From a virus (lineage: Duplodnaviria; Caudoviricetes), in the IMG/VR virus record IMGVR_UViG_3300021387_000573, positions 32,001 to 96,000 of that record: DNA of 64,000 bases. One strand, given 5' to 3'. Positions 25,521 to 64,000 of this stretch are shown here, piece after piece. The notes below the pieces were generated by a model, which was not told the DNA's origin, ran no database searches, and was given only the letters and a program-made list of their open reading frames with translations. The position numbers and the translations under genes are program-made. Numbering within the stretch: the stretch's first letter is position 1; every line of letters starts with the position of its first letter.

Positions 25521-27577
25521 AATAAGGGAATCAGAAAATAAGATAGAACAAGCTGGAAAATTTGGAAAATATGGAGCGCCGGAGCGCGGAAAAATTGAAT
25601 TTGACGAAGAGCCGGACAGTTTCCGGCGCTCTATTGAAAAGGAGAAATAAAAATGGAAAATTCTGTTCATATCAACATCAACGGCCACGATATCAGTTTT
25701 TACAATCGCAGCGAGAGCACCCGGAACGGCTTCCGGCATGTGTCCAGCATGTTTCTTGACCATGAGCATGTGGGGCGCGGAATTTGTAACTATCTCAACA
25801 GGACATGGGAATGGTACAGCTTTCAGTCTTCCATGATCCGCGCCGTGGAAAATCGGATGGACGAGCGCCAGGACCGGCTGGAGAGCATCTACCGCCGCAA
25901 CAACGGCATCAAGCGCATGACGGCAGCGAAGCGCGGAGAATTTGAGAAAATTCTGGATGATGACAGCACCATGCAGCTCTACCGGGACACGATCAAGAAT
26001 CTGAAGGAGGTATATCACCGTTGAAAACCTACAGACTGGAATGGGAAATGCCGGACGGAGCATCCGGGCTGGAAACTTATGCGGACGATCTGGACGCGCT
26101 GAACGATCTGGAAGATTTGATCGAAGACGGCGCGGAATGGGCGCAGCTCATGGAGTCCGAAACATACGGCGGCATGGTCGTGGATGAAACAATCATCAAG
26201 GAATATCGGAGGGAATAATGGAAAAATTCAAGACGATCTCCGAGCTTGAAATCCTCAATTATGCGTGGCTGGAAGTCCTGAAGAAATACCAATACGCAGA
26301 AGAGCGAGCCAAACGCCTGTGGGCTCTTGGAAAATCCGCGCCCATTGCGGAGGCTCGCATGGAAAAACTGAAAGCCCAGGAACAGGAGCTTCACGACGCG
26401 ATCCTTGAGCTGGAAAAAACGATGAAATGTTAATTTGATAAGGAGGAAATACAATGCACGAAGTTACTTATATCAATTCCGTAGGCGTTGAAGTTGTGGA
26501 AACTTTTGAAACAGAAGAGGAAGCAACGGAATTTACAAGACACCTTGACGAGCGTATTAAACGTGGAACGTGCAAAGGTTACTGCTATCACAAGCCGGGA
26601 ATTAACAATCTGCGAGAGCTGGACGAGCATTGGGCTTGATGGATGAAATAACTATTTCATAAGGAGAAAAACATGAATTTCGTTGAATACTGGATTGCAA
26701 GAGTGAATCAGGCATATGACAAACTTGATTGTTCAAAACTGGACGAGAAGACACGGGACAGTTTGGTTTATGCCGCTTCAAATCTTGTTAGCGAGTTGGA
26801 AAAAGCGGCCAATTTGGCCGGATAAAGGAGGAAAACATGAAAGTCAAATATGCGTATCTGGACAGGCGAAACACTTACGAGCTGGAGGCACCGGCCAAAA
26901 TCAAGGATAGCTGGGGAACTCCGTGGGAAGTGGCGAGCTTCCATGTGGAAGATTTCACCGGAAAATCTGTGCGTATCAGATACTACGGGACAAACAAGGT
27001 GGCTCTGTTTCGAGCCTTGAAAAGACTGACCTACGGCGAGGATGGAAATCTTTACTGCCAAGTTGCAAACAAAGTTTTTCTCATTGGAACATGGGAAATC
27101 AAAGAACTTTGAAAGGTCTTGATATCATCTATAGCGAGGACGATAGCGGCTACTATGCACAAGACTTCAACGATCCGAAGCAGCCAGCCAGCCAGGTATT
27201 CCAGTCTGTGGAAGATCTGAAGGAAGCAATCGACAGCGGAAAAATCAAGCTGAAATAAAACAATCTTTTGATTAGGAGGATTTGGAAAATATGAAAATCA
27301 CAAGAGGCTTTAACGGCCAGACGATTGAGATCGAGCTGACCGAGAACGAACTTTACCAGGCGTATATCGAACAGGAGCATATCTTTGATAGAAACGATGT
27401 AGAAAACTACTTCGATGACTATGAAGACTCTGATTTTGAGACAGAGTACGGATGCAGCCGCGCAGAGGCCATGGAAAAACTGGACGAAATCGCCTATGAA
27501 ATGCGCAGAAACATCGATAAGTACGATATGAACTGGTATGACGCCCGTGAAGCGGCTATTGCGGAAAAACTGTAATT

Positions 27578-27641
27578 GATCGTCAGAGCGATCTAAAACA
27601 GTCCATTAAGCTCTGAGCGTGGGGCTTATGCCCCGGTTGGA
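27578..27641 (+). ncRNA. Pistol self-cleaving ribozyme
   Basis: P1 GATCG/CGATC; loop TCAGAG pairs with CTCTGA (pseudoknot); TAAAACA linker; P2 TCCA/TGGA; TTAAG; GCG; P3 TGGGGC/GCCCCG; GU cleavage site at 27636/27637. Confidence 0.85.
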
Positions 27642-28865
27642 AAAATACATAATATGGGGAGGAAAAGTCATGTATACCAATGTCAAAGTCAAGCTATCCA
27701 AGAAGGACTTCGATACGATCAAGGAAATTTCCGAGCGGGAATCGTCTTTCGATTGGGATATCCCGAGCGGCTACATCATGTTCGGAAAATATGGCATGAC
27801 CGTCTGCCGTCTGTGCCGGAAAATCTGGTACACAAAGTACGTATCCGAGTGGAAAAGTAAATCTTACAAGGACATTATGGAAGAACTGGACGAACAGGAA
27901 TGGAGGGAAATCGCATGACCGTGGTATTCAATGACATTCGGCGTGAAACTTACGAGCGTTTGGAAAATGTGTGGTGGATGGAAGAATACTGGGCAAAAAC
28001 TTCTTCTGGCCACATGTCGTGGTTTTGGCTTTGCCACATGGAAGACGGAACAAACCGTTCATTTCAGAAGAAACACTATTCGATCCATCGGATCGACGGA
28101 TAAGGAGGACATGTCATGATTAAAGACGAAATCTTCTGCTATATCAGAGACAATTTCAATCTGGATGATATGGCGGCGTCTACGCTTGTTTGGAATATCG
28201 TTTCGCTTCTTGTTGATGAAGTGCAGAACAAGGATGATCGTATTTCGTTTGCGGAAGATTTGCTCGATGGGCTTGGCCTTAATGACAAAGAGTTAGCGCA
28301 GCTCTTTGGATGAAATGATTATTTGATTGGAGTGGAAAAGATGATTACTCTTGCTGAAGCATTCAAGCTCTGCGATATCAATGAAGAAAATGTGTATCTC
28401 CGTCATGTGGAGGAATCCAATTCTGTCTGGAGCAGCGGACATTACTTCCGGTCGAAGAAAATCCGCGACAAGATGGACATGCGGAAAATCCGAGTGGTCA
28501 AGATCGAACCGGCTTTTGAACACTTCGGGCCTGATTTCATCGGCTGGCGCTTTATTGTCGCCGGTATCACGCCGGAAGAATTGACGAGAATCGAATACAA
28601 ATAAGGAGGATATGAACATGGAGCTTTTCGTCGTGACTGATAACATCGTGCAGAACTTGTTCACGGAGCCAAGATACTACACAGAGGCGATTGACGCGAC
28701 ATATATCGTCGGTATCTACTCCACGAGAGAACAGGCTGTGAAGGAAGTCGAGCGTCTGGAAAAACTGAGAGACGATTCCGGCGATCCCGATATGTTCGAC
28801 CGGCACTACTACTGTGTCCAGACCTTCAACCTGGATGAGAACTATTCGATCAAATAAAATGCAGA

Positions 28866-28940
28866 TTTCATAATGCAGAGCACACCGGAAAATCCGGTGT
28901 AATGCAGCCGAAGACCGTTGCAAGCCGGTTGTACTGGAAA
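28866..28940 (+). ncRNA. Twister self-cleaving ribozyme (circularly permuted, P5-type)
   Basis: P2 TGCA/TGCA; GA-GCA pairs with L4 TGC (T1); P1 CACCGG/CCGGTG; U^AA at 28900/28901; T2 GC/GC; P4 ACCG/CGGT with loop TTGCAAGC. Confidence 0.8.
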
Positions 28941-31900
28941 ATATGAATGGAGGTTTACATATGAGCAATCGAATCCCGAGAAACGCCACCCGTTTGGAAG
29001 TTACCTGGCTGGTCGGCTCCAATGCTTGTCCGGCAGGAACCACAACAGAGGTTTGGAAAGACAGCTTTGGCTGGCATGAACAAATCGGCGGAAAATACTA
29101 CAGCGTTTTCCCTGCGCATCTGCGCAATGAAAACGTCTGCAAATTCAAGGTGATCGCATGATGGAAAATACGATGAACATTGAACCTGCGTCCATACTGA
29201 GCTTGGAACAGTACATAAATGTACTCCACGATCGCATAGAGAGCGATCCGTATATGGAAAGCGCGTACACCGTAGAGGACAGACACAAACTGTCTGGCAT
29301 CCGCGAGGCGCTGGGGCTGCTTGGCATCCACCTTGTCGAAAACGAGTATGGATACATCGAATGTGTGAGGGTGTTCTGATGGAAAAAATGGACAATATCA
29401 TCACTACTTACGCGCCGGAAACGGACATGACTTTCATCCTGGAGGATGACGAGTATCACACTAAGGTGATCGGTTGGTACTATGGCGAGCCGAACGTATG
29501 GGCAACAAAGCTCTTCGCCGGAAAACTTGAAGCCACATACAGTAAACCAAAGAGGTGGAAAACATGAAATATCCCGTCGAATGCAACAACTGGTATCTTT
29601 TGGACGTGGACTCCATGGAATATTACAGAGTGACGCCGGAAGGCCATGAATTCATCGACATGACATGGCTTGACGGAGACGAGGAAGACACATACGCCGT
29701 CTGCACTAATCTGGAAGAGACGGAAGACTTCTATCAAGCTGAGTATGACTTTCAGGATCTTCACCACACAGATAGCTATTGTATCTCCGGCATCGTAACT
29801 AAATCAGAATCGGAAAGAATTATTCTGGATTATATCCAGACACATTAAGGTTTCTCTGAGGGTTGAGCCTATCAGCCCTATCCCATGCAGATAAAACATG
29901 ACTTGGAAATTTTGAAGGAGGATTTACAAATGCGTATTCACGAGGATAACAGTTATATCAACAACAAACTGATTGCCGGTGGGCTGATGCGGAAAATTCC
30001 GCACTCCATCCGTCTGGACGTGGGTTACACCGAAGAGCAGAAAGCCGCGAATAGAGCCTATGCCGAGAAGGTTGGGCTGAACAGCCAAGAATGGAAGGAT
30101 TCTTGCGAGGCAGCTCGTCAGCGTCAGGCAGAGGAAAATCTGAAGATCGTGGAGTATCTCTCGGAGCATCTTACTGTCGGCGCGTTTCGCATGGAAAACT
30201 TGGACGATTGCGACCTCTGGTTCTGGTGCAATGACCTGTACAATACTTGCCACGATGGAAGATCCGGCAGAGATTACAGTTACATCACCCTGTCTTTTGT
30301 CCGTGACGATGCCGATCTGAACCGGAAAAATTGCAGACGCGCTATGGAACTTCTCGCTGTCTATCCTTGTGATCTCATGCAGGCCACGATCCAGTGGAGC
30401 CAGGAGGAACGCAAGGAAAACACGACTCGCGTTGCGGAGAAAATCTTCCAGACTTATGCTGGTAGGTTTGTCAAGCTCGGAAACACCGAAGGTAAGATCG
30501 AGAAGTGGGATAACGGTTATATCTTCAAGAAGAAGTATTCCAAGAAGTATGCCTATCGCCTGACACCGCTGGAAATTTGCAGAAGTTTCTACTGCCAGGA
30601 TGAAGTTGCCGCAGCGCTCGCGGCCATGTGATTGGAGGATTTGAATGACAGTCAAAGAGTTTCTTTCCCTGTGGGCGGATAATCCGAGCATCAAAATCAT
30701 GCAAATGCCGATCAAAAAGATTGACAAAAGCAGCGACCCTGTTCATAGACAGACAGCTCTCGTTTCGGAACTTTTGAAATCCAATCAGAACTATCTGGAT
30801 TTTGAGATTGCTTACTTCCTGATGGATGACGATCTGCTAATCGTCGTCTGCAAAGCAAACGAAGAGCAGGCAAGAAAAACGGTCGATGCCTATCTTGAAG
30901 GCAGATGATTGGAGGATTTGAATGGGACAGCATAAATATAATCCGACAGCCATCGCCGCAAAGAACGGGGAGCTTCCGCCGAAGCCGCCGAAAATGAGCA
31001 AGCGAGAGCGCGAGGCGGCCCTGTACGCAGCCATGGAAAAAGCTATGCACGAGAAGGGTTTGCTGACGCCGGACGATCTGCTGAAAGTCGGAAACATTGA
31101 GAAGTATTATTAAATTGAATTGGAGAATCTGAAATGGATAGAGAAATTGTGGAAGAAATCATCTTCGGCATGGTCGATATCATCAACGAAAACTATCGGC
31201 TCAAGAGAGAGCTGAAAGAAGCCAAGGAGTATGAGCGGAAGTATAACGATCTGCTTGACCAGAGCGTGAAGAATGCCGCAGCCGGACAGAAAGCTATGTT
31301 TGAAGCGATCCTTGCCGGTACATTTGCATCTGGAAAATCGGACTGATTTGGAGGATTTGATATGGATTCTTGGATTGATGCATTCGTGAAGTCTTACGAG
31401 GAAGAACAGCAGAGGCATATTAAAGAGGTTGATCCTGCCGTAGAGCTTGGCGCTTGGAAAAAACCATATGGAAAGATCTGTGAGTTTGAGGGCTCCAGAC
31501 AGGTTGCCGTCATTTATTACGGAACATGTCCTCATTGCGGTGAAGAATCCGCAGTCAGTTTCAGGTTTGGAACATATGCCGATCCGGAGTACCCACCGTT
31601 CTGCCCGGAGTGCGGCCAGCAGGTGAAGACGATCATGCCGAAGCGATAAGGAGAATTCGACATGGCAGCAGCGTACATCAAAGTGTTTTGCAATGGCGAA
31701 CCTGTTCGGACATTTGGCGGAAATAAAAAGGAAGTCAGGATAATGTGGGAAGCGTATGAAAACATGACTGTAGAAGAATTTGTCACGAAACATCCAAGAT
31801 TTGCCGGAAAGTGCAAACACAGAAAACATATCGTTGTGATGTTCAAAAAGAAATGAAATATGACTTTTATCGGAGGTGGAAAAATTGATTGCTGCAAGAC

Positions 31901-33018
31901 CTAAAATCGCCCGTTATGGCGTGGAAATTCTGGTTGACGAGACACGCTATCAGAATAGCGTTTTGTTTTACGACACCGAAGCCGAGCGGGATGCTGTCGC
32001 AGAAAGTTTGAAGAACATCGTGCCGATTCGCAAGTGGGCAACAACGATCCCAAAAGCAAACTGTGTTCCCGGCTGGCTCGTTGTGGAAAATTCGATCAAC
32101 TTTATTCAGTGAAAGGAGAACATATTGGTACGAGAGATTAAAACCATTCGTGACGCAGCGCAGGAATGGGTGCGCGAGATGAACGCTTATCCCTATGACA
32201 TGATCGCCAAGCTTATGGCCAACGATCCGGACGAATGGCGTGAGGTAACGAAGCCGTCTGTCGGAGATCGCGTGTGTGTCTATAACAAAGGCGAGGGCGA
32301 AGTCACAGGCGTAGAAAATTTGGATGACGAGCCGGTGTATACCGTCGAGCTCGATAACGGCAATCTTGCCGCCTGCAGTGAGGATGATTTCGAGCTGCTG
32401 TTCGATGACATTCTTCCAATGTGGGGAACGCTCTGGAGCTTCGGAGATTCCTGTGATGACTGGTGGCTGGAGGAAGACAACGGCATCGAGCTTATGTCCC
32501 GCTGCGGCTTCCGTGTGTTCCAGTCGGATGATTTCGGCTACTTCTTCGGCATCGACGGCGCCGGCTACGACTTCTATGAGGCGCACTGGATTCCGCTGTA
32601 CAAAGCTCGCGGCCTTAAATGGCACTCCGTAGAAGATACCAATTGATTCGTTGTAAATCCAACATACAAATTACAACAAGGAGGAAATGATCTTGGAAAT
32701 TTCCATGTGGAACATCGAAGATATGACCGGCTATCAGCCGAAGACCACCTTCTGGATGGACTTCAGCATTGCCGATAAGTTCGGCAAGGGTGCCGTCATG
32801 GACACCTATCAGAGAGCATTTGACAACTGGAAGGATGATCCCATCTATCTCACTGAGCTTGTCATGGTGCTCAACTGGAAGCTCTGGGAGCACCACGATG
32901 CCGGGAATGCTGTCCTTGCAGAAACCTACGACAAACTCTGGAGCGAAGCGGACGAGTATGCCATGGACAATCTGACAGGAGAAGATCTCAGCTACTTCCT
33001 GAACACAACAGACTGACC

Positions 33019-33041
33019 GTAGGGGCGGATATCATCCGCCC
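33019..33041 (+). repeat. Solitary REP-like palindrome with GTAG foot
   Basis: GTAG-GGGCGGAT-ATC-ATCCGCCC immediately after a stop codon. Confidence 0.5.
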
Positions 33042-36000
33042 GCATACATAAAAAATTAAGAAAGGGGATTGCCTTGGAAACCTTTACATTCGATGCTTAT
33101 ATGGCCTATGGAGACACGGAGAAAACCACCTTCGAGATCAATATTGATCCGCGAGATAAGGACCTTGCAACACGCTTGCGCAATGACATTGTAAAGAAGG
33201 TTGGAGCGGAGCCCGTATTCTGTAATGATCTGACCGGAGAACTTTGGATGTTCGACATGAAATTGGGCGACGGCCTGTGGCTTGAAAACATTCATCCAAG
33301 CAACGATCTGAAAACAGTTCGCGCTGGGCTGTATAACGCGGAACATTATCGCCCTGCTGATTGGAACACCATTCCAACCGTACCGATTGACGAATAGGAG
33401 GGAACAATGTACATACACCTGAAAGACGGAACTGGTCGTCTGATCGATAACGATAACGCCGAGCGCGAGCTGCGCGACATGCTGGAGGAATACTGCGGCA
33501 GGGAAGCGCTGGACTGCCTGGATTACGTCCTGGATCTCAAGACCGACGAGATCGAAGAAGAATTGAGGAAAGAATATGAGGAATTCGGAGACGATGAGCA
33601 AGATTGATACAGAGTTTTCTGGTCTGGTTTATAGATATAGACTTGATAAGGAACTGCTTGGAAAACATCCTGAGAATAAGGAACTTTTAGAAAGAAGAAT
33701 CAGCAGACATAAGGATGATATCATTAATCTTGTTACTTCAGATGAGTTTTTGAAGAACTATAGTCAGAGAATGGGAAAATAAAAGGAGGATTTCATTATG
33801 AATGGGATCGATGCGAATGTTGCTTTTATTCCGGTTAGATGTATTTCAACCAGAGATTCAAAGCCGGATCAGATCGAGGTTGGCAGAGCATATATAATCG
33901 ACAGGCTTTCTATCTGGCTTGACGCAGACGGAGATGCCTACGGCGTCGTGTATGATGCAGCGCGGAATAGAGTAGGGCAGATGCTTCTGTCCCATTTCAC
34001 GAGCGTATAAGGAGGTTATATCTATGGATAGTTTCGTTTTAAAGGCATTGAAAGCTTTAAAATGGCATGATGATCGGCCAGGATTTGATGGAGTGGTCAG
34101 GCATTCTACCGGAGTTGACGATGTTTCCGTTTGCGGTACAAGAATCTATATCCGATATGATGTAACGGCCAATACTTGCATTGAAAGCGGAATGGACGAT
34201 GGGACATTTAGCGTTTTCGTTCAATTCCCGAACAATAATTTTATCAAGGAAACGGTCGGCTCTTTTGAATCAGGGAAGAAAAGATGCGAAGAACTCAGAA
34301 AAGAGTTCTGGAACAAGTGGTATAAAGAGATTGAAAGGATGTTCGCATAATGAACAGAAAAGATATTAGAATTTGCTCTTGTGGCAGAATCCACTTCATT
34401 GATTCCGGGATCATTGACGAGGCGCTTGAACAGAACAAGAATACGCTTGTCATTTGCGGCGGCTGCGGCAGAACCTATGTGATCGGTGCAGACATTGAAC
34501 CGGATTGGTACGAGCCGGATAAGATGTGCTACAACATGTATACGAGCACATTGTTCCACAATGGGAGCGAAGACCCTTATATCTTTGATCAGAAGTTCTT
34601 TGAGACAGTAGAAGGGAAATTCAAAGGCTTTCACAAGGTTATCATCGATCCTGGCAAGAGAGTCATGATGGACACCGGATACTATGCGACTGCCTATGAC
34701 AACGGCAGCGGTATGTTCTATGACATGCAGTATCCTGATTTCTGGAAGATCAAAAAGACGGACGAGCTGGAGGATGTTCTGCTTTTCATTAACAAGTTCC
34801 AGCGAGATATGAAATCCGTCAACATGAACTGGCTCCTGCGTTCTCTCACGGACGAAGAGGCGGAACAGCTCTCACACTACGGCGTAAAGGGCCTGAACTG
34901 GAAGGGAACAAAGTGGGAGACCGAATATAACAGTCGATAAGGAGGCTTCTATGGCAAGTAAGAGAAACGCCAGGTTCCTGGATGCTCAGAATTTTATCTA
35001 TGAACTGCGCCAGAAATGGTATCAAACCGAAGAACAGATGGAACGACACAATGCAGAAAACGGTAAAGATACAACGTATTATATTCTTCTTGGCCGTTGT
35101 GACGCTTTGATGCAGGCGGTAGATATGGCAGAAGAATTCGCAGCCGGCCAGTACGCTGTAAAGTACGAATAAACAGTAGTAAAGGAGAAATCTATTATGG
35201 ATTTTATGGATGCTCTGGTTGATGGTTTTGTAGAAGTTCAGAATCAGCTTGAACCAGACTATGGCTATTTGTGCGATATTCGCGGCAATCCGACAAAGCG
35301 CCACCCGATGTCATATCCATATAGTTACGATGCTTATGTAATTTGGGCTAAAGAGTACAAAGAAAATGATGATGCGGTTTACTCAGACAGGCTCTATCAA
35401 TGGGATTCAGAAAAGTATGATCGTTGTTGTATGGAAGTGTGGAACGACAGAAGGCAAGTGTTTAATAGAAGCAATCCCAAGGATATTCAAAAGTTTCTTT
35501 CGTTGTACTTTGGGGAAACGGTAAAACTGACTGGAATTGAAAAGGGATGCAACGTTTCAACTGGATGCCCATATTGGGTATTCTATTATCGAGCCGAATA
35601 AAAAGAGGGCAATTCTATGTCGATTCATTGCGATGATATTGATTGCTGTGACTTTTGCACAGATCTTTCTTGCGATGTCAATCCAAAAATGTTTGCGGCG
35701 ATGTATGCTATATATAAGTCAAGCGAAGATGATGGCAATGATAGTACAGAATAAAATTGTCACTTCATCACGAAAATAAATAGAAATATCGTGCCTTTTA
35801 ACACGTTTTTCTATGGATAAAGTGCAAAATTTTACACATTATCCGCGTTTATCAATAGAGGATTAGAACTGGCAATCATTGTTCATTGAATTATGTAAAC
35901 TTTGGTGATAATCTTTTGACGTGAACAAAGAAGATCTGATAACTGCATAATTCAATGAAAGGGGACTGCAAAATGAAAGAACTGTATACATTCAAGCGGA

Positions 36001-36498
36001 GCAAGAACGGTGAAATCAGTATCAATCCAGGTGGAAGCTATAAGGATGCCTGTGATGCAGGAAGTCTGCGGAAAGCGGTGTTGTTTGCTGTCCTGTGGGC
36101 ACTTGGCAGCAGAGCCGGGCAGCTCGACACGGCGGACAAATCTGAATTCCTGGACGATCTGTTGTTTCCGGATGGAGACGCACCGGTAGATTACAGCTTC
36201 GGACGATCCGTACATAACGAGGAGGCGACTGTTGTAGTAGATGAAGGATGTGATCTGGAGGCGGAGGCCAAAGATGTGTTCAGTTTCATGGACGCATACC
36301 GCAGCAGAATCCTTGTAAATTTTGAGTTCCTTGCCAGTCTGGTCGAGTGTGAAATGAGCGCAGGGGTGTTTCTCCGGAAGAAGGACGAAGTGGAGGGCTG
36401 TGTTGGCCGATACGAGAAGTTCTATAACATTAGATAGAAGAGCAGGCGGGGACTTATCTCTCCGCCTGAAAAATCTTGAAAAATATTTACATAACTTG

Positions 36499-36551
36499 TT
36501 GACAAATGCAAAATGTTCTGATAGAATACAAGAGGGTCGAACGAAAGACCC
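36499..36551 (+). promoter_or_regulatory. Sigma-A promoter in the conserved box plus a leader hairpin
   Basis: TTGACA-17-TAGAAT, then GGGTC-GAACGAAA-GACCC. Confidence 0.7.
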
Positions 36552-36622
36552 GTTAAAATAGCAAGCAAAACGCAGTCAAAAGAAACTAAATACACAAAAT
36601 ACGGATTGTATCGGGAGGAATT

Positions 36623-36829
36623 ATGGAAAGAGGATATGCTTACGGGATGCGCCTGCGTGGATTCAGCCCCGGTGCTCAGCCGATGGGGACTTTTCTGGAT
36701 CGCATGGAGGACACGACAGGGAAGTATCACGATATTCTGATCTACTCCGTCCCTCTGAAAGAGGAGGCGGTCAGACAATACGACCTGGATTACCTTGGCC
36801 GCGCCGTGACCGAGTGGATCATTCAGTAA
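36623..36829 (+). CDS. DarA C-terminal domain-like small protein
   Basis: YGMRLRGFSPGAQP...GKYHDILIY..PL.EE.V.QYDL pattern. Confidence 0.45.
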   Translation: MERGYAYGMRLRGFSPGAQPMGTFLDRMEDTTGKYHDILIYSVPLKEEAVRQYDLDYLGRAVTEWIIQ

Positions 36830-49319: not shown

Positions 49320-49323
49320 TAGC

Positions 49324-50159: not shown

Positions 50160-50189
50160 TAAAAAATATAAAATTCTATAATAAAACTG

Positions 50190-51450: not shown

Positions 51451-51526
51451 GCGCCTGTAGCTCAGTTGGTAGAGCACCGCCCTTTTAAGGCGGGTGTCCG
51501 GAGTTCGAACCTCCGCAGGCGCACCA
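51451..51526 (+). tRNA. tRNA-Lys(UUU)
   Basis: CCGCC-CT-TTT-AA-GGCGG arm, canonical D and T arms, CCA. Confidence 0.9.
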
Positions 51527-51531
51527 TATTG

Positions 51532-51608
51532 GGGCCGTTAGCTCAGTCGGTTAGAGCAGTTGACTCATAATCATCAGGTCCTGGGTTCAAGTCCCAGGCG
51601 GCCCACCA
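51532..51608 (+). tRNA. tRNA-Ile2(CAU) (or elongator Met)
   Basis: GGGCCGT acceptor, CT-CAT-AA loop, Ile2-like overall, CCA. Confidence 0.8.
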
Positions 51609-51963
51609 CTCCAATGGGGTTGTGTCCCGGAGGAGAAACAGATTAGTCATTCGAGAAACCGTCAGTGGAGCCGATCTTACGAGGAGGTCTGCGTAGAAGC
51701 TGCGGAGGCGCGATCCCGATCTCTGTAACATTCTCCACCATGGCAGAGACGGTTCAGCGAAAACAATGCTTTCGCGATAGTGTGGATAACGAGAGCTGCC
51801 GGTTCGTTTCAACGGCTTTTGGAATCGGCAAACGCTTGGTTTATGCGGCGGTGCGCAACGCGATAAACCCGTATTCAGCAGAGCGAGTAGATCCTGCTGG
51901 CTGGCTGCGTGAGCCAGGTAGAGCTTGCCGCCGGAGTGAGTGAAAGAAACGCATCCGGCATCT

Positions 51964-52048
51964 GCCCTCGTGGTGGAACTGGTATACACATACGGCTTAA
52001 GTCCGTATGCCGCAAGGATTGAGGGTTCGACTCCCTCCGGGGGCACCA
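51964..52048 (+). tRNA. tRNA-Leu(UAA)
   Basis: GTGGAACTGGTATACAC D-arm, CT-TAA-GT loop, variable arm, CCA. Confidence 0.85.
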
Positions 52049-52236
52049 GAAGGCCGGTTCGATTCCGGATCAATGATAGAGGGCATGGTTGCGACGGGGT
52101 TCTCCGGGCAGGATCGGAGATGATGTGTGCCGAGTCAGATGGCGTCTCTCGGCTAACCTTCGGGCTTGACCCGACAGTAGGACAAGATCCATCGTCATGG
52201 TAAGGACGATGTAAAACGGCCAGAGATTCCTAATAT

Positions 52237-52312
52237 CCAGGGCGAAGTGTAATGGTTTTGCACTCCACATTTGGGATGTGGAAGAGCGGTTCGATTCCGA
52301 CGCCTTGGGCCA
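52237..52312 (+). tRNA. tRNA-Pro(UGG), divergent T-stem
   Basis: CCACA-TT-TGG-GA-TGTGG arm, GGTTCGATTCC, CCA. Confidence 0.7.
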
Positions 52313-52315
52313 TAC

Positions 52316-52406
52316 GGCGGCTTGGCAGAGCGGCAATGCACCCGACTTGAAATCGGAGGTCTGGCCTAGTAAGTCAGCAAAGGTTCGATCCCTTTAGCCG
52401 CCGCCA
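52316..52406 (+). tRNA. tRNA-Ser(UGA)
   Basis: CCCGA-CT-TGA-AA-TCGGA arm, long variable arm, G73, CCA. Confidence 0.85.
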
Positions 52407-52528
52407 TATCAAATAACATTTTTATCTGGGAGGCGATATAATTACACACGTTGCATGTTTTATTTTAGGATCACTATTTGGATTGTCCATTATGTGTCTG
52501 TTGAAAACGTCATCACGAGAAAGCAGGC

Positions 52529-52855
52529 ATGAAGAAAAAGCGTTGCGGGAGGCCAAAGATAGAAATGAATTCTGATGAATCTATGCGTGCTATAGACGCC
52601 GTAATAAAAGACCTTATATTACATATTCAGGAGCTCGAAGCCGAAAATGCCTCCCTTCGCGATAAGGTTTATCGGCAATCACATAAGTTGACTGCATTGG
52701 CAAACCGCGCACAGGAGTTGGATGTGAAGAATATTTATTTGTGTCATAAGATAGAGGTTGCAATTCAATATATCAAGGGTGCCTGTTACGATGATGGGAT
52801 GCGAAATAGAACGGTTAGGCGATTGTGGAAAGCGCTTGATATTCTTGGAGGTTAA
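52529..52855 (+). CDS. Hypothetical coiled-coil protein
   Basis: ORF after the tRNA array; start uncertain. Confidence 0.45.
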   Translation: MKKKRCGRPKIEMNSDESMRAIDAVIKDLILHIQELEAENASLRDKVYRQSHKLTALANRAQELDVKNIYLCHKIEVAIQYIKGACYDDGMRNRTVRRLWKALDILGG

Positions 52856-53511
52856 GAAGAGAATTGGCGATAGCCTTTAGCCATAGACGGCCTGTAAACA
52901 CATTTCATGAGAAGAATCTTTTTCATAGAATCGTGGTAATGGTATTTTTCTTTTTCGCCATTTAGATATCTTTTGTATTCTGAAAATCTGTATTCTGCGG
53001 CTTGCCTTGATAGACCATAAACGCGTTCAATATCTTCTATCGTATGAATTTTAAAAAGAGAGAAGGTTGGGAACGGTGACAATAAGGATGCCGCAAAAAA
53101 GTCTGCTTCTTCTTCCAATTCGTGTCTATCGAAATAAGAAGATAGACGCTTTTCATTGGACGCATCACATATCTCATCGAAGTGCCCGCAAATAACATGT
53201 CCAAATTCATGGGCAAACGTCCATCTAATTCTATTGTAACTTGACGTAAACCTGGACGACTGATTTGCGAGGATTAAATATCTATCTCTTGATGAATCGT
53301 ATTGTGTGCATCCGGTGTAACTTTTGCAGGCAGCAATTACATCATGAAGAGATGTGCTACTGATTTGCGCAAGGTCATAATAAGACATCGCTCGGCAATT
53401 CGGATAAAGCGATATGGCCATTTTAGGGTCCAATGGAAATTGGATGCGATCTAAATTGCAGAAAATAGTTAAGATAGCATAATCTACTCGATCAAAAATA
53501 AAGTCTCGCAA
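52852..53511 (-). CDS. immA: ImmA/IrrE family metallopeptidase (antirepressor protease)
   Basis: RWTFAHEFGH (HExxH), EEEADFFAASLL. Confidence 0.85.
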   Translation of the reverse strand: MRDFIFDRVDYAILTIFCNLDRIQFPLDPKMAISLYPNCRAMSYYDLAQISSTSLHDVIAACKSYTGCTQYDSSRDRYLILANQSSRFTSSYNRIRWTFAHEFGHVICGHFDEICDASNEKRLSSYFDRHELEEEADFFAASLLSPFPTFSLFKIHTIEDIERVYGLSRQAAEYRFSEYKRYLNGEKEKYHYHDSMKKILLMKCVYRPSMAKGYRQFSS

Positions 53512-53856
53512 TTAGGAATCATCTCCAAATGCATATTTAAAACCAGCTTTAATGATATTCATTGCCTGCTCCCAGTCTTTCTCAGGCATGTTTTGCTTGG
53601 CTCGCTGGAGAGCAATGATACTCTCGTCTCCCAAGACTTCTTTAGCACCAGCCTCGATATCAGAGCTTCCGAGAAGAAAATCGACAGACACGCCGAGATA
53701 TTCGGCAACCTTTCTAATCATGCTGGAACGCGGATCAGACACCTTCCATTTATAAATTACGTTCGCACCAAATCCGAGTTCTGATTCAAGTTTTGAAACA
53801 GTAATCCCATTCTTTTCACAGAGCGTTTTGATTCTTTCGAATGTGATATTAGACAT
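53512..53856 (-). CDS. XRE-family HTH repressor (ImmR-like)
   Basis: IKTLCEKNGITVSKLESELGF...KVAEYLGVSVDFLLG; adjacent to ImmA. Confidence 0.85.
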   Translation of the reverse strand: MSNITFERIKTLCEKNGITVSKLESELGFGANVIYKWKVSDPRSSMIRKVAEYLGVSVDFLLGSSDIEAGAKEVLGDESIIALQRAKQNMPEKDWEQAMNIIKAGFKYAFGDDS

Positions 53857-54064
53857 TTAGAATCCCTCCAATAAGAAAATAAGATAGAAAATAGCTTGAC
53901 AACTATCTGATAGTCTGGTATTATTCTCTTGCGGTCAGAAAATTAGATAGAACTCAATTACAATATAGTGAATAATTTCCACCATGTCAAGATAAATTTA
54001 TAGTTTTCTGACAATATTCTATCCAATTTTCGTAGTTAATATATAAGTTTTACATAGGAGAAGT

Positions 54065-55036: not shown

Positions 55037-55186
55037 AGATAAGAGCACCAAGCGTGCTCTTTCTTCCAGCGATTTAAACGCATTGAAAAGAAAGTAAAAT
55101 AAAAAGCTAATTTTATTACCAAAAACGGTACTCAAAAGTGCCCATGAATAGGGGACTTACCAAATATTTACATAGGAGAGATTTTC

Positions 55187-56829: not shown

Positions 56830-58011
56830 ATTCTTGTAAACGGAGAAAGAGCGCTGGCCTACGTCGTCAGCATCGATGAAATCAAACCTATTGATGGCTA
56901 TGACCGCGTGGAATACGCCCGCACCAATGGCTGGTGGGTCATCATCGGCAAGGCAGACGGCCTGAAGGTCGGCGACAAGTGTGTCTACTTTGAGATCGAC
57001 AGCAAGGTTCCTGCTTCCGACAAGCGCTTCGAGTTCCTTGAGAAGCGCAACTATAAGATCAAGACCCAGCGCATGTGCAAGGTGATCTCTCAGGGCCTGC
57101 TGATGCCTCTGTCCGCTTTCCCGGAGCTGGGCGATGCCGAGATTGGAACCGACGTTACAAAGAAACTCGGTGTTACATACGCGGTCGCAGACGATAACGA
57201 CCGCAAGCGCAATTTCGGCGATCCTAATGCCAAATATAAATCCATGGCGGCTCGCCACCAGAAGCTGTTCCAGACCAAGCCTGTCCGCTGGTTCATGCGC
57301 CGCAAGTGGGGCAGAAAGTTCATGTTCCTGCTCTTTGGCAGGAAGAAGGATAATCCCAAGGGTTTCCCGGATTTCATCAAGAAGACCGACGAGGAACGAG
57401 TCGAGAATCAGCCGTGGCGCATTGGGGACGGCAAGACCTATCTTGCCACCGAGAAGCTGGATGGTACGAGCTGCACTTATGCACTCCGGCGTTTGCCGAA
57501 GAAGGCGTTCCGGAAGCAGGAGTATGAGTTCTATGTCTGCTCCCGCAACGTCCGCCAGAAGGATGAGAATCAGGCGTGTTATCACGACCACAATATCTAC
57601 TGGGATCTGGCCTTCAAGTACAACATCGAAGATTGTCTGCGCAGTATCCTGTGCGCGTTTCCTGATTTGGAATGGGCCTGCATCCAGGGTGAAGGCGTCG
57701 GCTCTGTGCAGGGCAACCCCCTGAAGCTTTCTGCCGACGACCTGTATGTTTTCAACTTCGTCACGTCGAAGGAAGGCCGCTGGGATTCGCGGCGCGGCAA
57801 GGAGCTGATGGGAATGTACGGCTTGAAGTGGGTGCCGATCCTCGGAGAAGTCACTATGCCGGAATCAATGGAGGAGCTCAAGCTCCTTGCAGACGGTAAG
57901 TCTGTCGTCAATCCTGCCGTAGCTCGTGAAGGTATCGTCTATCGCTCTCTCGACGGACAGGATTCCTTCAAGAACGTGTCCCGTCAGTACCTGCTGAAAC
58001 ACGGAGGTTAA
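56830..58011 (+). CDS. ATP-dependent RNA ligase (Rnl2/DRB0094-like), probable ATT start
   Basis: VYFEIDS, SQGLL, KTDEERVEN, motif I EKLDGTS, QGEG.G, REGIV, SFK; frame extends to ATT at 56830 after AAGGAG. Confidence 0.85.
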   Translation: MLVNGERALAYVVSIDEIKPIDGYDRVEYARTNGWWVIIGKADGLKVGDKCVYFEIDSKVPASDKRFEFLEKRNYKIKTQRMCKVISQGLLMPLSAFPELGDAEIGTDVTKKLGVTYAVADDNDRKRNFGDPNAKYKSMAARHQKLFQTKPVRWFMRRKWGRKFMFLLFGRKKDNPKGFPDFIKKTDEERVENQPWRIGDGKTYLATEKLDGTSCTYALRRLPKKAFRKQEYEFYVCSRNVRQKDENQACYHDHNIYWDLAFKYNIEDCLRSILCAFPDLEWACIQGEGVGSVQGNPLKLSADDLYVFNFVTSKEGRWDSRRGKELMGMYGLKWVPILGEVTMPESMEELKLLADGKSVVNPAVAREGIVYRSLDGQDSFKNVSRQYLLKHGG

Positions 58012-59022
58012 ATGAACAAGCCTATTTTCTGGATGATGGTTGGCTTGCCGGGGAGCGGCAAGTCCACCATCGCCAAGATCATCCAGCGCAGCGTACCGAA
58101 CACCGTGATCCATTCCTCGGACGAGCTTCGCGGTGAACTCTTCGGCAACGTCAACGACCAAAGCAAGAACGACCAGCTTTTCACAGAGCTGCACCGGCGA
58201 ATCAAAGCGGATCTCGTTGCCAACAGAAACGTGATCTACGACGCCACCAACCTCAACAAGAAACGGCGGGCATCCTTTCTTGCTGAGTTGAAGCACATCG
58301 ATTGTTTCAAGCAGTGTGTTCTCGTTCTCGCACCTCTGGATATCTGTCATGTCCGCAATGACAACCGTTTTGAACGCCAAGTTCCGGGCCCCGTCATCAA
58401 TCGTATGTACATGAACTTCCAGCCGCCGTTTTACTCCGAGGGATTTGACGCGATCTCGATCGAGTATAGCTACAAGATCGAAGACACCTTCCGCAAGTAC
58501 GATCTTGAAAAGATGTTCAAGCCAAACTCGTGGTTTATGAATTTTGATCAGGAGAACAAGCATCATCGTCTTACGCTGGGCGCTCATTGCGATGCCGCAG
58601 CTTCTTATATCTCGGGCATTATTACCGAAAGAGAGAGAAACGGAGCAGACGACGAAGAACTTAACCGGCTCGCTACTCTTGTTGACGCAGCGTGGATTCA
58701 TGATGTTGGCAAACTCAACACCAAGACGCGGGTGAACGCCAAAGGCGAAGACGATGGTCAGTGTCATTACTACCAGCACCATTGCGCCGGCGCTTATGAC
58801 TGCTTCTTTTATCTGCGAAACTGTGAGAAATCCTGTGAGTTGGATTCTCCTGAGAACGAGGCCAGAAATCTTTACATATCAAACCTGATCTATTGGCACA
58901 TGATGCCGTACACGGCTTGGAAGCAGTCTGAGAAAGCCAGAGAGCGCGATAAGCGGCTTATGACCGAGCAGATGTATGAAGACGTGCTCCTGCTCCATGA
59001 AGCAGACATCGCAGCACACTAA
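58012..59022 (+). CDS. Polynucleotide kinase (P-loop) fused to HD phosphoesterase
   Basis: MVGLPGSGKST, SSDELR, IYDATN; HH..TL..H, IHDVGK, YYQH, WHM, HEAD. Confidence 0.8.
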   Translation: MNKPIFWMMVGLPGSGKSTIAKIIQRSVPNTVIHSSDELRGELFGNVNDQSKNDQLFTELHRRIKADLVANRNVIYDATNLNKKRRASFLAELKHIDCFKQCVLVLAPLDICHVRNDNRFERQVPGPVINRMYMNFQPPFYSEGFDAISIEYSYKIEDTFRKYDLEKMFKPNSWFMNFDQENKHHRLTLGAHCDAAASYISGIITERERNGADDEELNRLATLVDAAWIHDVGKLNTKTRVNAKGEDDGQCHYYQHHCAGAYDCFFYLRNCEKSCELDSPENEARNLYISNLIYWHMMPYTAWKQSEKARERDKRLMTEQMYEDVLLLHEADIAAH

Positions 59023-59033: not shown

Positions 59034-59249
59034 ATGAATAACAAACATACAAGCAGTACAAGTAGTAGCGGCATGGGATTCCTTTCGGTTTTGGGGCTTA
59101 TCTTTATCGTCCTGAAGCTACTCCATGTAATTGACTGGCCGTGGGTGTGGGTGCTTGCGCCAATCTGGGGTGGCTTCCTTCTTGGCATTGTAATCCTCGC
59201 TGTGTATCTGATTATCTACATTGCCATTAAAAAGAAAACAAAGAGATAA
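59034..59249 (+). CDS. Small two-TM membrane protein
   Basis: LIFIVLKL..VIDWPWVWVLAPIW. Confidence 0.7.
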   Translation: MNNKHTSSTSSSGMGFLSVLGLIFIVLKLLHVIDWPWVWVLAPIWGGFLLGIVILAVYLIIYIAIKKKTKR

Positions 59250-60413
59250 AACGTAGATTATATGAGGAGAAATAAGTTGTTCAGCACAAAATACCGCATC
59301 GAGAGCGTTGAGGAATTGACGATAAGCAATCCGATGCACGAACAGATCCGAGGTAAAATTTGTTATCCTGCTTATTTCGCAGTTGGCGAGCGCGGCATGA
59401 TGCTTGTGGACATGGAGGATGCACCGTCGTTTTTGAGTATCCATAGCATCTTCACAACAAAAGTACAAAAAGTGACGAACACGAGAGACGGCGGATTTGC
59501 TGTTACGACAAAGAACTCTATCTACGTCTTTCTCCCGGTAATGGAGGAGTAAATGTCAGATTACAGACACGAAAAAGTTCTCCGCGTTCCGTACCAGAAG
59601 TATGGCCTCGGAGTCGATACAGATAGCTTGGACTTCTGCATGGATTTCGAGGACGAGCATCCGACGCTGTTCGGCGGCACACACAACTTCCAGTTTGCAC
59701 CGACCGACGAGCCATTTCTGGATTACCTTCTCCTCCGGAAGTATGACTGCTCCGGTGAGTTTGGCAAAACCCGATCCCTGTATCCGAGCGAGAAGGAGAA
59801 GTATCTGCCGATCTTCCAGCAGCTCATCCCGGAGATCGACATGGACGATGTAAGGCTGGTCGAGTATTGCTGGTACGACGGCACAGAAGCGCCGGATTAC
59901 TACGATGAGAGTACATACCACGATGTTTTTTATGACGAGGTGTAAATGAAAGAATTTGAATTGAAGTTTTCAGAACGCGGTGACGGATATGAAGTCACCG
60001 GCCAGGAGGTCTGGTCGGACAATCCAGATGAAAAGGTTTCGTTCAGCGTTTATAACCTGTGCGAATGCCCGGAGGATGCGATCATCGGACGCGATCTGTT
60101 TGACGCCACTGATTTCATCCGAGCCGTCGAGCTTGGATTCCGGATCGCCAAACGCGGATATGACAATATCATCGTGACCGAAGTTCCCTGGGAGGATTGA
60201 AACATGAAACTGAAAGAAGCGCTGGAACTGGCCGATGAGTGCGGCCTGTCCACGGTGGGTGAAGCGATCCTGAACGTCGAGCTCCACGCGCCGAGCCTGT
60301 TCCCTTATGAAAAGATGCACGATGAACTGAATGAACTCTGCCAGGAAGCCGCTGCTTATGACGATAATCAGTTGATTTCCGGACTTTTGAGCAAATAAAC
60401 GGTTAATTTCATT

Positions 60414-61437: not shown

Positions 61438-61484
61438 CTATTAAAGCTTGCGCCGTATGCAATAGGACAGGAGTTTCTACATAA

Positions 61485-62165
61485 TTGAACATCGGAAAGA
61501 AAAGCAAAATTTTGCTAATTGTATTATTCTCTGCCGCCGTATTAACGCGATTGCTAACGGGAGGGAGTAGTACATTGCCGGATAAGAATGCAAGCAATGC
61601 CAGCCCGCCAGAGGAACAGATTACTCCAAACTTAGCAGATAAAAATATCGTTGAGGCAACCGACACGCCTGCAACGGAGAACCTATCGCTTAAAAAGAAC
61701 ATCGTGATTTTAAAAATGCTTGATGAAACCGGACGCCAGGGCACAAAAGGAAGACTGGTTTTTGATAATACTGACTTCAGTGTAGCTATTTTTGAAAGCG
61801 ATCAGTATGAGGGGCCAGATGCTCAGGTGATCGTCAACGCAACAGATAGTGCTGTGTGGTTTATGTGGTTTGGAAGTCAATCGCCAATCATAGCTGATCA
61901 TTGCAATCAGGGATTCGATATCATCAAAGAGTGTGAACCTGGTGATATCTGTTACATAATTGACGGAGATAACTATCAAAAATATGTGTGTGTCGGCGTT
62001 GATCCGGACGGAATCAACGAAAGAGACAACATGTACCTTTCGTCTGGATACAACTTTATGCGAGACAATGATCCCGGTTTTTTGTACATGTACACATGCA
62101 GCAAAGAAGGAGACTCATATCACATCACGGTTGCTATCTGGACGCCGGTAGAAGAAGACGAATAA
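61485..62165 (+). CDS. Membrane-anchored sortase-fold protein
   Basis: N-terminal TM helix; IIADH...GF..I...PGD; LYMYTC (TLxTC-like). Confidence 0.55.
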   Translation: MNIGKKSKILLIVLFSAAVLTRLLTGGSSTLPDKNASNASPPEEQITPNLADKNIVEATDTPATENLSLKKNIVILKMLDETGRQGTKGRLVFDNTDFSVAIFESDQYEGPDAQVIVNATDSAVWFMWFGSQSPIIADHCNQGFDIIKECEPGDICYIIDGDNYQKYVCVGVDPDGINERDNMYLSSGYNFMRDNDPGFLYMYTCSKEGDSYHITVAIWTPVEEDE

Positions 62166-64000
62166 AAGAGGGTTGTTATCATGAGAATTGAACTTATCTC
62201 GGGCCGTGAAGGTTGCTGCATTGCGGTGAATGACACCAGGATCGCAGGGCCAAAGCCTTGGGGTGGTGGCAGAGTGTTGCATTCTTGGGAGGTAGGGCCT
62301 TACGGTATATGCGATCTTGCCGAAATCTGCAACAAAGAGATCGAAGAGATGCGTAAGAAAGAGGAGAAGAGTTATGGCGAAGAATTTGTCGCCAATCACT
62401 ACTTCGTTTGAGCTGCAATGAAAACACTCAGAGTGCTTTTGACTCGCCATCTTGCGAGCAACTGCAACAATTTCAGCCATGTGGAATCGAAAGTCATCGA
62501 GATCCCATTGCTGCCGTATCTCGGTTACATGCTCGAAAATGAAAGCGGTTGGACGGTTCAAGAGGCGAAAGTGATAGATAACAACTACCAAACTGTTGGT
62601 ACTAATTGTGTGAATAAAAACGGAGTTTGATTATGCAATTTTGTAAAGTGTGGAAGGACATTTCAGAATCACTTAGAAAAGGCGATATCAGGAGAGAGAA
62701 CCAGCTTGCCGCAGCGGATGCGATTGATTATCTGATTCAGTTGCACAAAGAGGATACGCAAGAGGTAGTCAGACTGACAAATCTTTGCCATGAAATGGAG
62801 AATAGAATGATTCTCAAGTATAACGTCGGCGATGAGATCAGCTTCAATATCAAAGGGCGCATAAAGCGCATCGACATTGAAAATGGGATCTGCTATACGG
62901 TCATCGTCAATGACGGGAACGGAAGAGAAACTTATCTCTACCTCGATGACGATCTTATGCCCCGAAAGGATTGAAATGAAGATCACAATTGAAACGGATT
63001 CCATTTGTGATAAGCGCCGCAATCTCGTTGATGCGATTGTGGGCGTGGCAATTGGTATGAGATATTGCCCCGGCGTGTTTGGATGGAAAACGAATCCAAA
63101 TCTGTCTCAGAACAATTGCAGTTCTGATGACTGTATTAGGTGCTGGAGCTACGCCAAAGCGAAAGCGCTGGCAGATCAGGAATGAAACGGAGCTTTGATT
63201 ATGACGATTGAACAGGAACTTGCAGCTTTGCAAGCATTTCTCGGTCCCTGGCAGCAAACCAGAGAAGAAAAGCATAAATATTCAGAAGATTGTTTTTTCT
63301 TCGAGGAAGATCAGGACATGAACGCAACGCTCCCTTATTGTGCTTATCAGCATGATGTGTATCCTCGCGGCTGTTGCAAAACATGTAAACAGTATGTGAG
63401 TAAGCAGCAAGCACGAGACTTGGTTCTTGCGTATGTCAGCAGGAAAGGAAGAACAGCCGATTAACGATTTCAGATTCGATTTCGACCTGTTCCTTCAGAT
63501 CGCAAAAGAATACGGCGCTGAGATCTGCGAATGTGAATCAGGAGAAGGCGGCATCTTCGTCCAAGGGAAGCGTGTAACAGGCAAGGACATTTTTGCCATG
63601 AAAGATTGTTATGGACCAGAGTTATGTGAGCGCTGCATCTGGAAACGAAACGGAGGCTGTTCCGAATGGAATGGCATAAAGGAGACTCCTGAATACTATG
63701 GGTGAACAGGCAACACAATGCGAACTGTACGCAATCCCGGAAAACGGTGGACAGCCTGTAAAGATAAACGGCATTGCCACTCTTTCCGAGATCCAGTTTG
63801 GAGACAACTCGTATGAAAACGAACAGTTCATATGGTGCGATATGATGTCGGAGGCAAGCTTCTCGATCGAAATGACAAATGATTCATCCAGAATCCTAAA
63901 CAGATTTGCCAGGAGAGTGCGTCGCTATTTGAGACGGCACGAGCAGCAGGCGAAAAGAAAGAAAAAGAAAGGAAACCACAGATGATTATTACGTTGCTTA

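Follow-up and report, generated by a model that had tools for sequence, protein, structure and literature searches.

An 18-bp palindrome at the early gene junctions of SPbeta-like phages as a candidate crossover point between gene units

Why should one short palindrome stand at so many junctions between the small genes of a phage? The question is raised by bases 32001-96000 of a 124,755-bp contig from an SPbeta-like gut phage (IMG/VR record IMGVR_UViG_3300021387_000573; 45% G+C, estimated to be 81% complete), a 64-kb stretch called the window here. The element is an 18-bp dyad, ATNAAA-N6-TTTNAT, in which 6-bp inverted arms (ideally ATAAAA and TTTTAT) surround a 6-bp spacer whose letters vary from joint to joint within one genome. 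Most likely the palindromes mark built-in crossover points. The reading I favour is that they are joints between gene units of the SPbeta-like lineage, recombinase-catalysed and matched by their spacers, to which I assign a probability of roughly 0.45. The clean exchange of unrelated genes at gene borders in phage mosaics is an old question, to which modular theory and linker sequences belong. What the dyad adds is a defined 18-bp joint, conserved from SPbeta/phi3T (B. subtilis 168) to uncultured gut phages and kept while both neighbours are replaced.

A strictly spaced dyad between early genes

The window holds 20 exact copies of ATNAAA-N6-TTTNAT, whereas 100 dinucleotide shuffles gave a mean of 0.28 and a maximum of 3, and the whole contig holds 30. 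When the distance between the arms was scanned from 0 to 14 over the contig, all 30 copies fell at N6 and any other spacing gave 0-3; everted and direct arrangements of the arms showed no excess over expectation in the same test. Only the two 6-bp arms carry information in the sequence logo, apart from a weak preference for A at position 0 and for T or C at position 19. Inverted arms around a 6-bp spacer have the geometry of a tyrosine-recombinase core site, in which spacers measure 6-8 bp, and an A-tract, a 6-bp spacer and a T-tract make up the inner layout of dif-type Xer sites. The original prediction, made from the letters of this DNA, had listed 18 exact and seven one-mismatch copies, all of which are present, and had described a motif far above chance, arms that are fixed around a spacer differing at each copy, and core-site geometry. 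The shuffles, the enrichment of N6 and the spacers listed below, which all differ, agree with that description.

The late genes of the contig form a block on the minus strand, and some 145 small genes form another on the plus strand. Junctions were called with a gene model based on codon usage; inside-gene calls for the relative G001 (see below), made by ORF length, are upper bounds. Of the 28 exact copies in this plus-strand block, 27 fall at gene junctions, which account for 18% of positions, and about ten one-mismatch copies lie at junctions likewise. Copies occupy 34 of the 143 junctions of this block and 32 of its 64 gaps of at least 15 nucleotides (nt), while the junctions without one are mostly overlapping genes or gaps shorter than 15 nt. 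In at least 13 copies the stop codon of the upstream gene falls on motif positions 2-4, giving A-TAA-AA or A-TGA-AA. The next ribosome-binding site (RBS) lies a few bases 3' of the site or inside the spacer, the right arm ending 1-3 nt from the RBS or start codon. With a stop codon in the left arm and an RBS right after, the sites thus separate translationally coupled groups of one to few genes each.

Two sites, 50845 and 52408, bracket seven of the eight clustered tRNA genes. Only two exact copies of the window lie outside 26422-63199, namely 22560, in a divergent intergenic region, and 712, which stands within a minus-strand late gene and is probably a chance occurrence. Other one-mismatch hits (42522, 48417, 53536 and those of the late region) are intragenic, and their number fits a chance expectation of about 6. 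The late region is nearly devoid of the motif, as had been suspected of the structural operon. The placement at stop codons and before the RBS, the delimitation of one-to-few-gene units and the bracketing of most tRNAs, all part of the same proposal, have been borne out as well.

No sigma-A-type promoter or GC-stem terminator overlaps the sites. A role as promoter was ruled out because sigma-A-type promoters lie elsewhere and the right arm comes within 1-3 nt of the RBS or start codon; a role as terminator was ruled out for want of a GC stem. Could the dyad act in the messenger instead, through a hairpin between cistrons or through recognition by a protein or RNase, and so serve to process the polycistronic early transcripts or couple their translation? 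Its place between a stop codon and the next RBS would suit such a signal, and a Pistol and a twister ribozyme at two equivalent junctions imply that intercistronic cleavage is used in this phage. The stem, however, is worth only about -1 kcal/mol, and positions 3 and 16 are able to pair in 12 of the 30 copies, which is the chance level and shows no covariation. Symmetry under reverse complementation would be meaningless to single-strand recognition, relatives carry copies in both transcription orientations, and the spacer islands described below would go unexplained. I regard an mRNA signal as very improbable, and the RNA-processing hairpin offered in the original prediction as an alternative is disfavoured with it. 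The strict N6 spacing, the lack of covariation between N3 and N16 and the weak hairpin together indicate a duplex-DNA site for a symmetric binder.

The Pistol ribozyme (60 bits, window 27578-27641) and the type-P5 Twister ribozyme (48 bits, window 28874-28929) each occupy an intercistronic gap of the early region, the latter directly after joint site 28854. A second repeat, AAAGTGCCCATGAATTGGGCG, occurs at 22052, 38173, 41640 and 55134, in three of the four cases directly after an 18-bp site, and its copies are read as intrinsic terminators for the minus (antisense) strand.

Gene replacement at the sites in close relatives

Three close relatives could be aligned to the window: L045 (19.8 kb, about 93% identical in shared parts), L047 (98.9%) and L046. 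Contigs of four further gut metagenomes, each of a different study, were compared over window positions 33001-53000; parts of the window without contig cover in these four runs are not evidence of absence, and habitat labels (gut, ruminant or other) attached to low-share runs were disregarded. The sites are as follows, in window coordinates, with strand not assigned.

22560-22577, exact copy in the divergent region separating late and early gene blocks
26422-26439, joint site, spacer TGTTAA; upstream stop inside spacer
26643-26660, joint site, spacer TAACTA; then RBS
27255-27272, joint site, spacer CAATCT; stop at positions 2-4
28310-28327, joint site, spacer TGATTA; stop at positions 2-4
28854-28871, joint site, spacer TGCAGA; adjoins the Twister-P5 ribozyme on its 5' side
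31853-31870, joint site, spacer TATGAC
33779-33796, joint site, spacer GGAGGA, doubling as RBS; island of 18 identical bp against L045:1459 between unrelated flanks; three other runs have contigs rejoining exactly at 33779
35751-35768, joint site with one mismatch, spacer TTGTCA; left edge is the start of homology with L045 and with contigs of two runs
37022-37039, joint site, spacer CACGAA; identity island against L045:2796; a 62-aa (amino-acid) gene follows in the window, a Tad4-family gene in L045
37241-37258, joint site with one mismatch, spacer CGCGAG; L045 block begins 6 nt before
38149-38166, joint site, spacer GATAAG; upstream gene missing in L047, the junction being the left edge; run X8 contig has the same spacer GATAAG and other neighbours
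39673-39690, joint site with one mismatch, spacer TGTGAG
41616-41633, joint site, spacer TGCGAA; 41613 is where contigs from runs X5 and X6 rejoin
44310-44327, joint site, spacer CGACTG; identity island against L045:4325; run X6 contig rejoins at 44308
44866-44883, joint site, spacer CACAGA; L045 block and run X9 contig begin at 44865
45787-45804, joint site with one mismatch, spacer CAAAGG; L045 has 447 extra nt just left
46470-46487, joint site, spacer GAGTGG; recombinase promoter lies 65 bp downstream; extra L046 gene just left
50845-50862, joint site, spacer TCGAGG (L045: TCTCGA); left border of the tRNA block; right edge is the end of L045 homology
52408-52425, joint site, spacer TAACAT; right border of the tRNA block
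55099-55116, joint site, spacer AGCTAA (L045: AACTAA)
59246-59263, joint site with one mismatch, spacer CGTAGA; island of identity with L045:18617
60395-60412, joint site with one mismatch, spacer GGTTAA
62162-62179, joint site with one mismatch, spacer GAGGGT
62614-62631, joint site, spacer ACGGAG, RBS-like; ATG 2 nt 3' of site
63182-63199, joint site, spacer CGGAGC; ATG 2 nt 3' of site

Blocks of homology with L045 begin at the left edge of sites 35751, 37241, 44866 and 45787, one ends at the right edge of 50845, and one begins right after 59246. The same 6-bp spacer as at the collinear window site is found in 10 of 12 L045 sites. At four of the joints (33779, 37022, 44310 and 59246) the exact 18 bp form an island of identity between flanks that are unrelated on both sides; four further sites shared with L045 have only the right flank in common. 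The letter at N3 or N16, often part of the neighbour's stop codon, follows the swapped neighbour while AAA-spacer-TTT is unchanged, which places the crossovers within about 3 nt of the spacer edges. Such positions are compatible with recombinase cleavage, not specific to it. Genes between matched joints differ, as in the interval 37022-37241. In L046 an extra gene is inserted just left of 46470, and in L047 the gene upstream of 38149 is missing.

The contigs of the four metagenomes break off or rejoin at 33779 in three runs, at each of 35749/35750, 41613 and 50862 in two, and also at 44308, 44865 and 37040; in one contig the GATAAG site stands between neighbours that are new on either side. 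The original prediction had proposed breakpoints in relatives as a test of its idea, and breakpoints of gain, loss and replacement do fall at site edges.

Two observations concern the cargo of L045. Between joints with window-matching spacers, L045:2555-3149 carries a DarA_C-domain gene and a Tad4-family gene, whose family names suggest anti-defence roles. Elsewhere, a Hint-domain gene takes the place of the methyltransferase and RNA-ligase stretch.

The lineage and the case for spacer-matched exchange

To which phages does the dyad belong? The capsid-like protein of this phage is 34% identical to that of SPbeta-group Bacillus phages, and a 925-aa protein of the late block (17337-20114, minus strand) is a YonO-type single-chain RNA polymerase (PMC5467207). 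Relatives in IMG/VR, with 49-68% YonO identity, share the late genes and a block encoding a 322-aa recombinase and MazF-like, 344-aa and 220-aa proteins, while almost none of the small early genes is common to the window and these YonO-encoding relatives. A megablast search of 20 kb of the window against a phage collection gave no match. The motif recurs in these distant relatives (17 copies in G001 against 2 for the control, 12 in G004 against 1), and an unbiased count of dyads ranked TAAAA-N6-TTTTA first in G001 (19 observed, 1.1 expected) and also in 50 kb of SPbeta (16 against 0.9). SPbeta has 34 copies (control 2), of which 27 lie in the early region beside stop codons, with additional weak TRA/TYA flanks, and phi3T has 30 (control 2); copy number in the lineage is 30-37 per genome.

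The unrelated B. subtilis phages SPO1, SPP1 and phi105 have 0 copies. Thus the site tracks phage lineage rather than host, and a host-factor site was ruled out on the same ground. A YonO promoter was ruled out too, the sites lying in the early region whereas YonO drives one late operon in SPbeta (PMC5467207). YonO of this phage is only 26% identical to that of SPbeta and still the arms are kept, which implies a conserved binder. No description of the dyad was found in the literature searched.

SPbeta and phi3T repeat the pattern of the close relatives. Their early regions, when aligned, show 41 block edges, 32 of them at junctions; dyad junctions received 12 of these 32 where 5 were expected (P=0.002), and P=0.036 when only gaps of at least 15 nt are counted. 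Five islands of identical spacer stand between unrelated flanks, including three in succession (SPbeta 116415, 117535 and 118470) with different genes between them.

How might such islands arise? Crossovers between related genomes would occur at the inner arm edges, so that flanking genes are replaced and the AAA-spacer-TTT core stays. A lineage-specific tyrosine recombinase would bind the arms and exchange strands across the spacer, and the spacers of the two partners would have to match, as in lox or FRT. A rule of this kind would block deletion between unlike sites of one genome while allowing exchange between co-resident phages; it would explain both the stable coexistence of unlike sites and the retention of spacers at equivalent joints. 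Exchange between equivalent sites of two genomes fits better than shuffling within a genome. In its fullest form the proposal would be a natural cassette-exchange system, with minimal core sites, 6-bp spacers serving as locus addresses and a phage tyrosine recombinase swapping accessory and anti-defence genes at equivalent joints of co-resident phages that otherwise lack homology, its own genome staying in order; it would span the lineage from SPbeta of Bacillus to relatives in the ruminant gut; this I hold tentatively, with the odds leaning against it. The enzyme may be the 322-aa protein at 46596 or a YomM-like protein of the late operon. Two proteins enter the argument here and below:

46596-47564, plus strand, tyrosine recombinase, 322 aa; candidate enzyme or binder
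48285-49319, plus strand, integrase-fold protein, 344 aa; closest solved folds phi3T SroF and SPbeta YopR/MrpR

The lineage conserves tyrosine recombinases whose catalytic residues are intact, in keeping with spacer-matched exchange. In the 322-aa protein, R84, K174, H203, R206, H233 and Y242, read as catalytic, are invariant in five orthologues, as befits the intact recombinase that had been proposed at 46596. Its gene holds the position of yopP/sroD in SPbeta and co-occurs with the motif in relatives. Relatives of this protein were absent from the viral contig collection, and a metagenome scan gave two loci only. The YomM-like tyrosine recombinase (G000:C1:24934-25974, minus strand, outside the window) is the best-conserved recombinase of the lineage, with 58-64% identity among relatives and 26% to SPbeta yomM. 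A further recombinase at window coordinates 88154-89311, beyond the end of the window, is likely the true integrase.

A number of observations weigh against recombinase-catalysed, spacer-matched joints. The conserved arms measure only 6 bp, compared with 11-13 bp in classical core sites, and SroD/YopP of SPbeta is said to be an auxiliary repressor. About half of the breakpoints or more lie at site-less junctions or in genes; among the close relatives many fall at junctions without a site (33068, 36822, 37458, 58012, 59020) or are intragenic. Short junctions force gene-sparing breakpoints to lie near a site in any case. Enrichment over a null that allows junctions only is about two-fold, and for the window it is gone when only gaps of at least 15 nt are counted (P=0.5). 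Spacer and right arm co-segregated with the downstream block in eight of eight cases and with the upstream block in none, an 8:0 asymmetry that is not predicted by a strict matching rule, and the spacers are unlike at 50845 and SPbeta 87599, where the upstream block alone is shared. In the L046 and L047 indels a site marks one end, while the other end shows only microhomology around a stop codon. Most of the L045 spacers match, yet that of 50845 does not, and one indel of about 800 bp between SPbeta and phi3T leaves a composite site, its left arm taken from one dyad and its spacer and right arm from the following dyad, so that sites with unlike spacers are linked. Finally, short-homology recombination at a site kept for regulatory reasons would look much the same.

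That last point leads to the rival that has most to offer, although I consider it somewhat unlikely: the dyad would be an operator or roadblock for a lineage-specific regulator, punctuating early transcription in the manner of stoperators or KorB operators. An SroD/YopP-like integrase-fold auxiliary repressor, a YonR-like helix-turn-helix (HTH) protein and a YonN-like HU protein are the candidates for the regulator. The breakpoints would then follow from the dyad being the sole short sequence common to unrelated junctions, and so a patch of homology, with gene-damaging recombinants selected out. A symmetric dyad with strict spacing that is confined to non-coding gaps of the early region, stands just upstream of the RBS and moves with the downstream gene counts in favour of an operator, and the modest enrichment of breakpoints over the junction null and the microhomology at the L047 indel fit as well. 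SPbeta-like phages also possess repeated elements bound genome-wide by integrase-fold repressors (PMC10516654; bioRxiv 10.1101/2025.11.27.690993), which counts for this rival. However, a regulator blind to the spacer leaves unexplained the four 18-bp islands with both neighbours replaced in the 20-kb comparison, and likewise the three consecutive islands of SPbeta and phi3T, for which repeated crossovers exactly at both edges would be needed. Nor is there a copy in the divergent promoter region of the HTH gene (53857-54064).

The same comparisons bear on the idea with which the original prediction began, that of an integron-like array in which one-to-few-gene cassettes, each carrying a site, are excised as circles and reinserted by the recombinase at 46596 at other sites, in their own genome or a different one and regardless of the spacer. 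The geometry fits, the recombinase looks intact, and the indel of about 800 bp between SPbeta and phi3T does join two sites with unlike spacers. Against this, window, L045 and L047, like SPbeta and phi3T, are collinear in the order and spacers of their sites, and no cargo was seen at a second address in these comparisons. Simple indels in near-identical relatives are one-ended, and spacer and right arm go with the downstream block. Sites also flank the conserved repressor block, which free site-to-site deletion would put at risk, and the 18-bp dyad, without a long imperfect hairpin, has no attC features. An integron-like array is accordingly improbable, and that part of the prediction was not upheld.

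The repressor candidate, its promoter repeat and systems of similar layout

The 344-aa protein at 48285-49319 raises a narrower version of the operator idea, in which the palindrome is the binding site of this MrpR/SroF-like repressor and hence the equivalent of SPBRE. The closest folds of the protein are SroF and YopR/MrpR, its gene adjoins the motif-bearing region in all relatives, and in the SPBRE core, ATACA-N7-TGTAT, the half-sites are centred 12 bp apart, as they are in the palindrome. MrpR of SPbeta, however, gave ten ChAP-seq peaks, all at SPBRE promoters (PMC10516654), and the 34 dyads of SPbeta lie away from them. The binding site of SroF is an asymmetric box of 26 bp, occupied by a monomer (bioRxiv 10.1101/2025.11.27.690993). 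The repressor boxes of phi3T and SPbeta differ while the dyad is the same in both. A better analogue of SPBRE in the window is the repeat shared by seven promoters, described next. This version is highly unlikely, and a stoperator or operator of MrpR type was dropped in view of the promoter repeat, the SPbeta dyads outside the MrpR peaks and the spacer islands. Of the repressor-site alternative in the original prediction, then, the general operator keeps the standing given above, whereas the site is probably not the operator of the MrpR-like protein.

SPBRE as derived from SPbeta is ACAAATACAAAWAATATGTATA and reads as a promoter with -35 and -10 elements 17 apart. Seven strong sigma-A-type promoters in the window (24060, 25490, 36494, 46530, 47761, 48239 and 50185) have AACTGTTGACAAATGYAAAA...TAtAAT in common. 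They share the stretch TTGACAAATGYAAAA, one mismatch from the SPBRE stretch ACAAATACAAAA, and a stretch within this promoter family, ACAAATGCAAAA, is likewise one mismatch from ACAAATACAAAA. Three of the copies serve as promoters of the genes for the recombinase, the MazF-like protein and the 344-aa protein. From its resemblance to SPBRE, the promoter repeat is likely the operator of the SroF/MrpR-like protein. The link of the 344-aa protein to SroF/YopR came from a fold search alone, run on a predicted model (pLDDT 80); PDB sequence searches gave no match, and in BLASTP neither the 322-aa nor the 344-aa protein had a significant match to YopP, YopQ or YopR of SPbeta. The 344-aa protein is likely to be the master repressor, probably acting on the promoter repeat and not on the palindrome.

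The block to which both proteins belong (46596-50060) comprises the recombinase, an orphan MazF-like toxin (PemK), the SroF/MrpR-fold protein and the 220-aa protein, and is kept in G001-G004. Its make-up suggests a variant of the sro repressor operon of SPbeta, with a MazF of its own. Neither a DndB (SroE/YopQ-like) gene nor a serine recombinase was found in the contig, at its estimated 81% completeness. An 88-nt repeat (76% identical) at 36470-36557 and 50161-50248 combines a family promoter with a GGGTC...GACCC stem-loop and resembles PeSL. Candidate regulators of the operator reading are encoded elsewhere: an HU-family, YonN-like protein at 12300-12578 (minus strand, late block), and, on the minus strand at 52852-53856, a 114-aa ImmR-like HTH repressor, with 29% identity to YonR of SPbeta, and after it a 219-aa ImmA-like metalloprotease, a pair that G001 also has.

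Which known systems come closest? The heterospecific lox and FRT sites used with Cre and Flp for cassette exchange have inverted arms around a short spacer, and if matching holds, the likeness goes further: spacer identity would pick the partners, leaving unlike sites inert while equivalent sites exchange cargo. Those systems are engineered, with 13-bp arms, 8-bp spacers and a known enzyme, whereas the phage dyad has 6-bp arms and a 6-bp spacer, and matching is something I infer from spacer retention. Integrons (attC/attI-IntI) also present many recombinase-type sites bordering small accessory genes, a recombinase nearby and variable cargo, but attC sites are imperfect palindromes of 57-141 bp that act as folded single strands and sit at the 3' end of a cassette; the dyad is 18 bp long, goes with the downstream gene and keeps a fixed order, and no cassette relocation was seen. 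The pdif sites of Acinetobacter plasmids, served by XerC/XerD, are likewise dispersed sites of arm, 6 bp and arm that bound exchangeable modules, and the inner A/T-rich arm bases of the dyad resemble dif. They differ in being 28 bp long, with two different 11-bp arms, alternating orientation and the host Xer proteins, whereas the dyad has symmetric 6-bp arms and follows the phage lineage.

Other comparisons lie on the regulatory side or concern homology. PeSL of T4-type phages and the linkers of modular theory are short, repeated, non-coding borders of small early genes in hyperplastic swap regions, like the dyad; PeSL, however, spans about 50-70 bp, contains a promoter and a stable stem-loop and works by homologous recombination, while the dyad has neither promoter nor stable stem and its centre is locus-specific. 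SPBRE and Phi3TRE (bound by MrpR; YopR, SroF) are AT-rich, repeated in the early region upstream of an RBS or promoter and bound by integrase-fold proteins of this very lineage. SPBRE is nevertheless an asymmetric, promoter-embedded element of about 22 bp in about ten copies that differs between heteroimmune phages. The dyad, in contrast, is a symmetric element in 30-37 copies that SPbeta and phi3T share unchanged, and the reported MrpR peaks do not include it. The stoperators of cluster A mycobacteriophages (L5 gp71) number about 24-36 short sites, stand in short gaps of the transcribed arms and often touch stop or start codons. Unlike the dyad, whose core is symmetric and identical in the heteroimmune SPbeta and phi3T, they are 13 bp long, asymmetric, orientation-dependent and bound by the immunity repressor, and they differ between heteroimmune phages.

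The presence of the dyad in SPbeta makes the question directly testable. If an addressed, site-specific mechanism is true, it would account for how large temperate phages turn over their accessory and anti-defence genes, and it would provide a natural tool for cassette exchange at many sites. Should the sites prove regulatory, the lysis-lysogeny circuitry of SPbeta would gain a second genome-wide element, one not found described in the literature searched.

Some genes and RNA elements of the window are of separate interest. The late block (minus strand) also encodes a beta-CASP/metallo-beta-lactamase RNase (14470-15912) and, beside a lone tRNA-Met, an abiF RNA motif (Rfam, 48 bits; 16261-16297). 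Early cargo includes a Thg1-like tRNA-His guanylyltransferase (40453-41283), an RNA ligase (56908-58011) and a P-loop kinase (AAA_33/KTI12; 58012-59022), three genes that I read as an RNA-repair set.

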